Under the pieces are notes generated by a model. That model was not told the origin of the DNA. It ran no database searches and saw only the letters and a program-made list of their open reading frames with translations. The position numbers and the translations under genes are program-made. A stretch of DNA of 64,000 nucleotides, from assembly GCF_036507355.1 (NCBI RefSeq), contig NZ_AP027877.1. The stretch is one strand, 5' to 3'. Below, piece by piece: positions 52,030 through 53,725 of this stretch. Origin of the DNA: Escherichia coli. GTDB taxonomy: Bacteria > Pseudomonadota > Gammaproteobacteria > Enterobacterales > Enterobacteriaceae. The first letter of the stretch is position 1. Every line of letters starts with the position of its first letter.

Positions 52030-53725
52030 GTGCAGCACGAGACAAAAATGGAAAACCAGAGCTGGTTGAAAAAACTCGCACGCCGCCTGGGGCCTGGTCA
52101 TATCGTTAATCTCTGCTTTATCGTGGTATTGCTTTTTTCCACCTTGCTGACCTGGCGTGAAGTGGTAGTGCTGGAAGATGCCTATATCTCCAGCCAGCGT
52201 AATCATCTGGAAAACGTAGCCAACGCGCTCGATAAGCATTTGCAGTATAACGTCGACAAACTGATCTTTTTGCGTAATGGCATGCGCGAAGCTCTCGTAG
52301 CGCCACTGGATTTCACCTCTCTGCGTGATGCTGTAACCGAGTTCGAACAGCATCGCGACGAGCACGCCTGGCAAATCGAACTCAACCGACGGCGCACCCT
52401 GCCAGTCAATGGCGTGTCGGATGCATTAGTCAGCGAGGGGAATCTCCTGTCTCGCGAAAATGAAAGCCTCGACAATGAAATTACCGCTGCACTGGAAGTT
52501 GGTTACTTGCTGCGACTAGCGCACAACTCCTCGTCGATGGTTGAACAGGCGATGTATGTCTCGCGTGCCGGATTTTACGTTTCGACGCAGCCGACCTTGT
52601 TTACGCGCAATGTTCCAACGCGTTATTACGGCTATGTCACCCAACCCTGGTTTATTGGCCATTCACAACGAGAAAATCGTCACCGCGCGGTACGCTGGTT
52701 CACTTCGCAACCGGAACACGCCAGCAATACTGAACCGCAGGTTACCGTCAGTGTTCCGGTAGACAGTAATAACTACTGGTATGGCGTGCTGGGGATGAGT
52801 ATTCCCGTGCGTACTATGCAGCAATTTTTAAGAAACGCCATCGATAAAAACCTCGATGGTGAGTATCAGCTCTATGACAGTAAGCTGAGATTTTTGACCT
52901 CTTCCAATCCTGACCATCCAACAGGGAATATTTTTGATCCTCGTGAACTGGCTTTGCTGGCGCAGGCAATGGAACATGACACGCGGGGCGGCATTCGTAT
53001 GGACAGTCGCTATGTTAGCTGGGAACGTCTGGACCATTTCGACGGTGTGCTGGTGCGCGTCCATACGTTAAGCGAAGGCGTGCGCGGCGATTTCGGGCAG
53101 TATCAGCATTGCATTAACCCTGCTGTGGGCGCTCTTTACCACCATGTTACTCATCTCCTGGTATGTGATTCGCCGGATGGTCAGCAACATGTATGTTCTG
53201 CAAAGCTCGTTGCAGTGGCAGGCGTGGCACGACACCTTAACGCGTTTATATAACCGTGGCGCACTGTTCGAAAAAGCCCGTCCGCTCGCGAAATTGTGTC
53301 AGACGCACCAACATCCTTTTTCTGTCATTCAGGTCGATCTTGACCATTTTAAAGCGATTAATGACCGCTTTGGTCATCAGGCGGGCGACCGTGTTCTTTC
53401 TCATGCTGCCGGATTAATTAGCAGTTCCTTGCGTGCGCAGGACGTTGCCGGGCGGGTCGGTGGTGAGGAGTTTTGTGTGATTCTGCCAGGCGCGAGTCTG
53501 ACGGAGGCTGCGGAAGTCGCAGAACGTATTCGCCTGAAGTTAAATGAAAAAGAGATGTTGATTGCTAAGAGTACGACGATACGCATCAGTGCCTCGTTGG
53601 GGGTAAGTAGCAGCGAGGAAACCGGTGATTATGATTTTGAACAACTCCAGTCACTGGCCGACCGTCGGCTTTATCTCGCTAAACAGGCTGGGCGTAATCG
53701 GGTATTCGCGAGCGATAACGCTTAA
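52030..53725 (+). pseudogene. dgcQ: Diguanylate cyclase DgcQ with +1 frameshift (extra G in a G-run)
   Basis: Two ORFs (52030..53253 and 53144..53725, the latter with GGEEF) in different frames; removing one G at 53095..53097 joins them into exactly 564 codons. Confidence 0.85.

Follow-up and report, generated by a model that had tools for sequence, protein, structure and literature searches.

A one-base insertion that separates sensor and GGDEF domain in dgcQ of an Escherichia coli strain: a probable recent, lineage-restricted loss of function

The dgcQ (yedQ) gene of Escherichia coli appears in reference annotations as 'cellulose biosynthesis regulator diguanylate cyclase DgcQ', and at least 80% of the gene is present in 5,330 of the 5,426 complete E. 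coli genomes of RefSeq. The intact protein, for instance WP_001362558.1 of strain 1332KP, has the architecture TM1-CHASE7-TM2-GGDEF, in which a periplasmic sensor is joined through a second membrane segment to a cytoplasmic GGDEF domain with an A-site (GGEEF) and an I-site (RAQD). Deletion of dgcQ results in 17% less c-di-GMP, larger swimming zones and a weaker mature biofilm (PMC12367115).

Naturally inactivated copies are also known, and dgcQ pseudogenes have been described in Shigella flexneri and in enteroaggregative E. coli (EAEC) (PMC11327459). The S. flexneri 2457T pseudogene (S2095) carries a stop at codon 56 that is followed by a methionine at position 59, making a near full-length protein possible, and the GGDEF domain located 3' of its lesion retains both GGEEF and RAQD. 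An allele of a different kind is Q312* (CAG>TAG), a nonsense substitution found in EAEC, in O104:H4 and in other E. coli, which splits the sensor half from the GGDEF open reading frame (311 aa and 251 aa, respectively). Q312* is described in PMC11327459, with a citation of Povolotsky and Hengge 2016. It is common: 210 of the 5,426 complete genomes carry it, O104:H4 among them, and 12,504 indexed blocks of the collection contain its product. A further 8 complete genomes carry L362* and 63 are devoid of the dgcQ locus. Either a null allele or the absence of the dgcQ locus is found in no fewer than 5% of the complete E. coli genomes.

Public assemblies contain at least seven other independent null lesions in codons 353-366 of dgcQ (Table 1). 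All of them fall in the stretch that encodes TM2, and gene callers derive from them the same 193-aa downstream product, although the mutations and the genetic backgrounds are different. This clustering does not point to a mutational hotspot in TM2, a possibility that was considered and rejected, since choosing the 193-aa product selects lesions located between approximately codons 352 and 371; the clustering is an artefact of that choice.

The locus described here belongs to a stretch of 64,000 nucleotides from an E. coli contig, referred to as the window (the features discussed are collected in Table 1). Its gene order, yedA-yedI-yodC-dgcQ-yedP-yodD-dsrB-rcsA, is that of annotated genomes, and dgcQ is found at its orthologous position between yodC and yedP. 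Annotated dgcQ genes from complete RefSeq genomes are covered over 100% of their length, with identities of up to 99.7%. When the gene was aligned with two intact orthologues, those of strains 1332KP and JME66, both showed GG where the window shows GGG, and this extra G (nt 1065 of the gene) was the sole indel, a gap of exactly one base. None of the other null lesions in codons 353-366 has this +G. The difference from the orthologues is deterministic, and a chance expectation is not applicable to it.

Removal of one G restores a gene of 1695 nt and 564 codons, composed of 356 native residues before the shift and 208 after it. Once repaired, the protein matches WP_001362558.1 with 100% identity, and the window differs from the 1332KP gene at four further DNA positions, all of them synonymous. 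An earlier note on this DNA had placed the sensor part and the TM2/GGEEF part in different frames of a dgcQ gene, had predicted that deletion of one G from the triplet at 53095..53097 would join 356 and 208 codons into 564, and had considered the resulting junction a plausible transmembrane helix. The alignments with 1332KP and JME66 locate the +1 insertion at that very place, the two reading frames (ORF1 and ORF2 in Table 1) are separated as proposed, and the repaired protein shows two membrane segments by hydropathy, at approximately residues 19-49 and 355-380, the second of which spans the junction. The identity of the gene is likewise borne out: the repaired product matches NF011955.1, the DgcQ equivalog profile, from end to end (positions 1-563) with 1097 bits, the cutoff being 408. 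The insertion does lie in a short run of G, but 'G-run' is too strong a term for two to three bases, a length much too small for a phase-variable tract.

Table 1. Coordinates of the dgcQ features and of the other disrupted genes in the window
Feature	Position	Strand	Remarks
dgcQ (yedQ), putative pseudogene	52030..53725	+	1696 nt; intact orthologues have 1695 nt
GGG, site of the one-base insertion, codon 356, N-terminal edge of TM2	53095..53097	+	GG in orthologues (alignment)
ORF1, 407 aa: 356 native residues (TM1 and CHASE7) and 51 out-of-frame residues	52030..53253	+	Stop TAA 53251..53253
Periplasmic sensor domain CHASE7, residues 41-227 of the native protein, still read in the frame of the start codon	52150..52710	+	Pfam PF17151, E = 5.9e-95
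TM2 coding region, native residues 355-380, split by the frameshift	53092..53170	+	Kyte-Doolittle hydropathy
ORF2, 193 aa from native M372, whole GGDEF in the other frame	53144..53725	+	Deposited as BED21977.1
GGDEF domain, native residues 398-557	53222..53701	+	Pfam PF00990, E = 4e-47
I-site RAQD, intact	53432..53443	+	
A-site GGEEF, intact	53459..53473	+	
ATG, native M387, candidate internal start	53189..53191	+	SD-like match, -6.4 kcal/mol
Other dgcQ nulls, codons 353-366			L362* TAA/TGA; W366* TGA/TAG; +C nt 1058; +C and -C at nt 1087/1088
fliJ, amber W111* (TGG>TAG)	61668..62111, mutated base 61780	-	
drpB (yedR), opal W27* (TGG>TGA)	46647..46928, mutated base 46727	+	Relative to FDAARGOS_946
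DRT4-like antiviral reverse transcriptase gene region, interrupted by IS1	17809..20141; IS1 18827..19601		9-bp target duplication
IS3-family element	31570..32802		Truncates the yeeJ/IatC-like inverse autotransporter adhesin
yeeJ/IatC-like adhesin, cut to 797 aa by IS3	32796..35189	-	

As encoded, neither half of the locus is a DgcQ protein. ORF1 matches only positions 1-358 of NF011955.1, and ORF2 matches positions 372-563 with 400.7 bits, under the cutoff, so that no single polypeptide gives an end-to-end match above 408 bits. ORF2 scores 215.6 bits on the GGDEF profile TIGR00254, and a Pfam CHASE7 domain is recorded for the exact 407-aa product. The domains and motifs of the TM1-CHASE7-TM2-GGDEF architecture are all present in the DNA, but TM2 is destroyed and GGDEF lies in another frame. 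In the repaired protein TM2 reaches a Kyte-Doolittle peak of 2.11; the 407-aa product is devoid of TM2, and the maximum of its tail is 1.19. The locus shares CHASE7, GGDEF, GGEEF and RAQD with intact DgcQ but differs from it in the change of frame at codon 356, which cuts the link between sensor and GGDEF domain. The lesion is located 44 codons downstream of Q312*, whose downstream open reading frame keeps TM2, in contrast to that of the window. Compared with S2095, the GGDEF domain 3' of the lesion is equally intact, but a restart in the window would give the bare GGDEF domain only.

The earlier note had left the choice between a pseudogene and a homopolymer error undecided. An error of sequencing or assembly, according to which the strain would truly have GG and an intact gene of 564 codons, can be argued from the fact that single-base homopolymer miscalls are the most frequent assembly error and that repair leaves a faultless gene, whose product shows 0 amino-acid differences from WP_001362558.1. 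Four homopolymer-length differences with respect to strain G4/9, at 27420-27500, could also indicate miscalling in one of the two assemblies, or else be real variation. However, the Logan assembly of run ERR3330519 is 100% identical to positions 49030..56253 of the window (7224 bases), the GGG included. The exact 407-aa product is encoded on five contigs of varied length (NCBI and Logan), which may come from one strain or from several isolates. The split is also deposited as BED21976.1 and BED21977.1 (VEE46_17440 and VEE46_17450), which belong to one E. coli chromosome; BED21976.1 is a 401-aa version of the ORF1 product that starts at the internal ATG 52048, and a search by encoding contig for this 401-aa form returned none. 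The same chromosome holds two further products specific to the window, a reverse transcriptase truncated by IS1 (BED21941.1) and a truncated FliJ (BED21990.1), and is almost certainly the one from which the window derives. The ERR accession belongs to ENA and the BED accessions to DDBJ, which suggests that the sequencing was independent. A run of three bases is, besides, short for a homopolymer miscall. Comparison with FDAARGOS_946 (98.9% identity over 27.5 kb) gave five indels, namely three single-base ones, intergenic by their position relative to the annotation, one 9-bp in-frame indel in fliK, and the G of dgcQ, whereas the sole indels relative to G4/9 (99.94% identity over approximately 24 kb) are the four already mentioned, all inside one intergenic stretch of 80 bp. 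In the approximately 52 kb aligned to these two relatives, dgcQ is the only gene with a frame-breaking indel. When 55 reference coding sequences were mapped on the window, 47 were intact, 3 were merely partial alignments and 5 were truly disrupted; one of the latter is cut by IS1, one is dgcQ, and the remaining three carry nonsense substitutions, which homopolymer miscalling does not produce. On these grounds an error is very unlikely. The reading frame is broken in comparison with the two intact orthologues aligned and, as far as the assemblies indicate, the lesion appears to be in the DNA of the organism, so that of the two options in the earlier note a real pseudogene is strongly favoured.

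If the extra G is real, it might still be compensated, or the two halves might retain some activity. Compensation by +1 ribosomal frameshifting, by transcriptional slippage or by phase switching of the G run would fit a shift that sits in a short G run, and GGG belongs to the glycine codons that E. coli uses less often. Nevertheless, slippage and phase variation depend on runs of some seven or more bases, and the run in question is three bases long (three G against two in the aligned orthologues), which is not a tract of varying length among relatives. Programmed sites are conserved, yet the shifted form occurs in none of the 5,426 complete E. coli genomes, a situation different from that of prfB-type frameshifting, where different lineages share the shifted arrangement. 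In the sequence of the site, GAT TTC GGG CAG TAT, there is no known +1 slippery motif; no stop or rare codon follows, and no Shine-Dalgarno (SD) stimulator lies upstream. Compensation of any of these three types was rejected because of the motif, the length of the tract and the absence of conservation, and its probability is close to nil. Residual activity is unlikely. Translation from an internal start (e.g., ATG 53189 or TTG 53210) could give a cytoplasmic GGDEF fragment that stands alone and makes some c-di-GMP free of the periplasmic sensor's control, and the anchored CHASE7 fragment could act as a sink for a ligand or a partner. In favour of it, the GGDEF domain, the GGEEF A-site and the RAQD I-site are all intact, ATG 53189 is the only internal start candidate with an SD-like match, and TTG 53210 lies 41 nt 5' of the ORF1 stop, possibly within reach of reinitiation. 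The anti-SD duplex energy is -8.0 kcal/mol for the native start and -6.4 kcal/mol for ATG 53189, while the other candidates range from -0.1 to -2.8 kcal/mol; ATG 53144 (M372), the first internal start, has no Shine-Dalgarno match. Among random positions in the gene, the match of ATG 53189 ranks no better than the 5th percentile, and this codon is a possible, weak start for the GGDEF fragment. GGDEF enzymes must dimerise for activity, and such a fragment would be devoid of both TM helices and of the sensor, the membrane/sensor part being assumed to supply the dimerisation of DgcQ. Moreover, only a rare lineage has the allele, and nothing suggests that it is selected for. Overexpression of the degenerate dgcQ, dgcE and dgcN of S. 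flexneri raised c-di-GMP and gave several protein products (PMC11327459), but these data come from a T7 overexpression plasmid, and the dgcQ allele concerned restarts at residue 59 and yields nearly the whole protein (PMC11327459). It is quite unlikely that the split locus is alive in the fuller sense, with a GGDEF-only fragment (from ATG 53189 or TTG 53210) that constitutively makes c-di-GMP and an anchored sensor that titrates a periplasmic ligand or partner; if true, it would be a natural 'rewired' diguanylate cyclase, like that proposed for degenerate Shigella enzymes.

The allele is best explained as a real, recent and lineage-restricted loss of function, a reading that we consider highly probable from the sequence comparisons. 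At codon 356, duplication of one G would have turned a GG dinucleotide into GGG. Ribosomes that initiate at the normal start would then make TM1 and the periplasmic CHASE7 sensor, followed by 51 unrelated residues that are not hydrophobic, and such a product, devoid of TM2 and of the cytoplasmic GGDEF domain, would be unable to drive c-di-GMP synthesis. The event appears to be recent, since no further decay has accumulated: the four DNA differences from the 1332KP gene are synonymous and the protein is identical once repaired. The domain architecture argues for a loss of DgcQ output, and the truncation of ORF1 before TM2 and GGDEF, together with the weak initiation signals of ORF2, makes a functional product of the locus improbable. 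A pseudogene need not, however, mean zero activity, as the early-stop S. flexneri dgcQ that raised c-di-GMP on overexpression illustrates (PMC11327459).

The allele is also rare. A 41-mer centred on the GGG, which seeds a megablast match solely in genomes with this allele, had no match in the 5,426 complete RefSeq E. coli genomes, nor in JGI metagenome contigs. The 101-base junction is held by 5,362 complete genomes, the best match being 99.0% identical and aligning 100 bases of the record with the 101 of the query. Apart from the source genome, the only known carriers of the GGG allele are NCBI draft contigs and Logan contigs. This +G allele of dgcQ is new and has not been described before, although the kind of event is well known. 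Strain G4/9, which is 99.94% identical to positions 7051-31582 of the window, was considered as a sister genome for dating the frameshift and turned out to be uninformative, because a deletion from shiA to yedL, bounded by an IS3, removes dgcQ from its genome. In G4/9 the IS3 is found at the same shiA junction as in the window but in the opposite orientation, and mtfA, yodB and fliE-R are also lost with the deletion.

Besides the dgcQ indel, the window holds three G-to-A nonsense mutations (in fliJ, in drpB and in a small open reading frame) and two genes disrupted by insertion sequences. The fliJ change lies inside a Dcm site (GGCCTGGCAG > GGCCTAGCAG), and Dcm sites are a classic hotspot of 5-methylcytosine deamination. 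The same W111* occurs in 4 of the 5,426 complete genomes (TUM9757, E92, E94 and NR301), with the RefSeq label 'internal stop', and the 110-aa FliJ product was found on 111 contigs. In the three carriers that were fetched (TUM9757, E94 and NR301), identity to the window around fliJ is no higher than about 98%, which indicates that the mutation is recurrent; the RefSeq carriers were therefore rejected as sister haplotypes, their backgrounds being unrelated. Judging from the truncated reading frame, flagellar export is probably impaired in the strain. In the neighbouring flagellar gene fliK (60535..61671, minus strand), a 9-bp in-frame insertion at 61347, a repeat of CCGCAGCCA, distinguishes the window from FDAARGOS_946 and leaves an intact open reading frame of 378 aa.

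The DRT4-like reverse transcriptase gives 195 bits on NF041749.1, below the cutoff of 450, and its intact form in G4/9 has 431 aa. The small gene 3' of it carries an amber mutation, W24*, at base 19948, and the region looks like a defence island in decay. Between sbcB and dacD there is a 4.7-kb insertion (2360..7050), absent from G4/9, with a GtrB-like glycosyltransferase gene (5239..6153, minus strand) and two open reading frames without NCBIfam match; it is probably the remnant of an O-antigen-modifying gtr cluster. The four single-base homopolymer-length differences from G4/9 at 27420..27500 lie in an AT-rich stretch between a tRNA-Asn gene and yeeN, and only three substitutions separate the two genomes in the 12 kb around it. 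Either the tracts are truly hypervariable or one of the two assemblies has local miscalls there.

With respect to the strain, the expected phenotype is that of the published dgcQ knockout, i.e., slightly lower c-di-GMP, more swimming and a weaker mature biofilm, by analogy with that mutant. Relaxed selection on the motility/biofilm module, including the motility brake that DgcQ represents, is a plausible setting for the loss, because the strain carries the fliJ amber mutation and other decayed genes close by. The probable impairment of flagellar export by fliJ W111* also bears on studies of biofilm, cellulose and motility, and the strain should be treated as DgcQ-deficient in work of these kinds. 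As for annotation, BED21976.1 and BED21977.1, currently 'hypothetical proteins', together make up a frameshifted dgcQ, and a single pseudogene entry should replace them. The allele is chiefly relevant to annotation and to users of the strain and opens no new mechanistic question; for the species, it would be one more independent case of the repeated natural inactivation of dgcQ.
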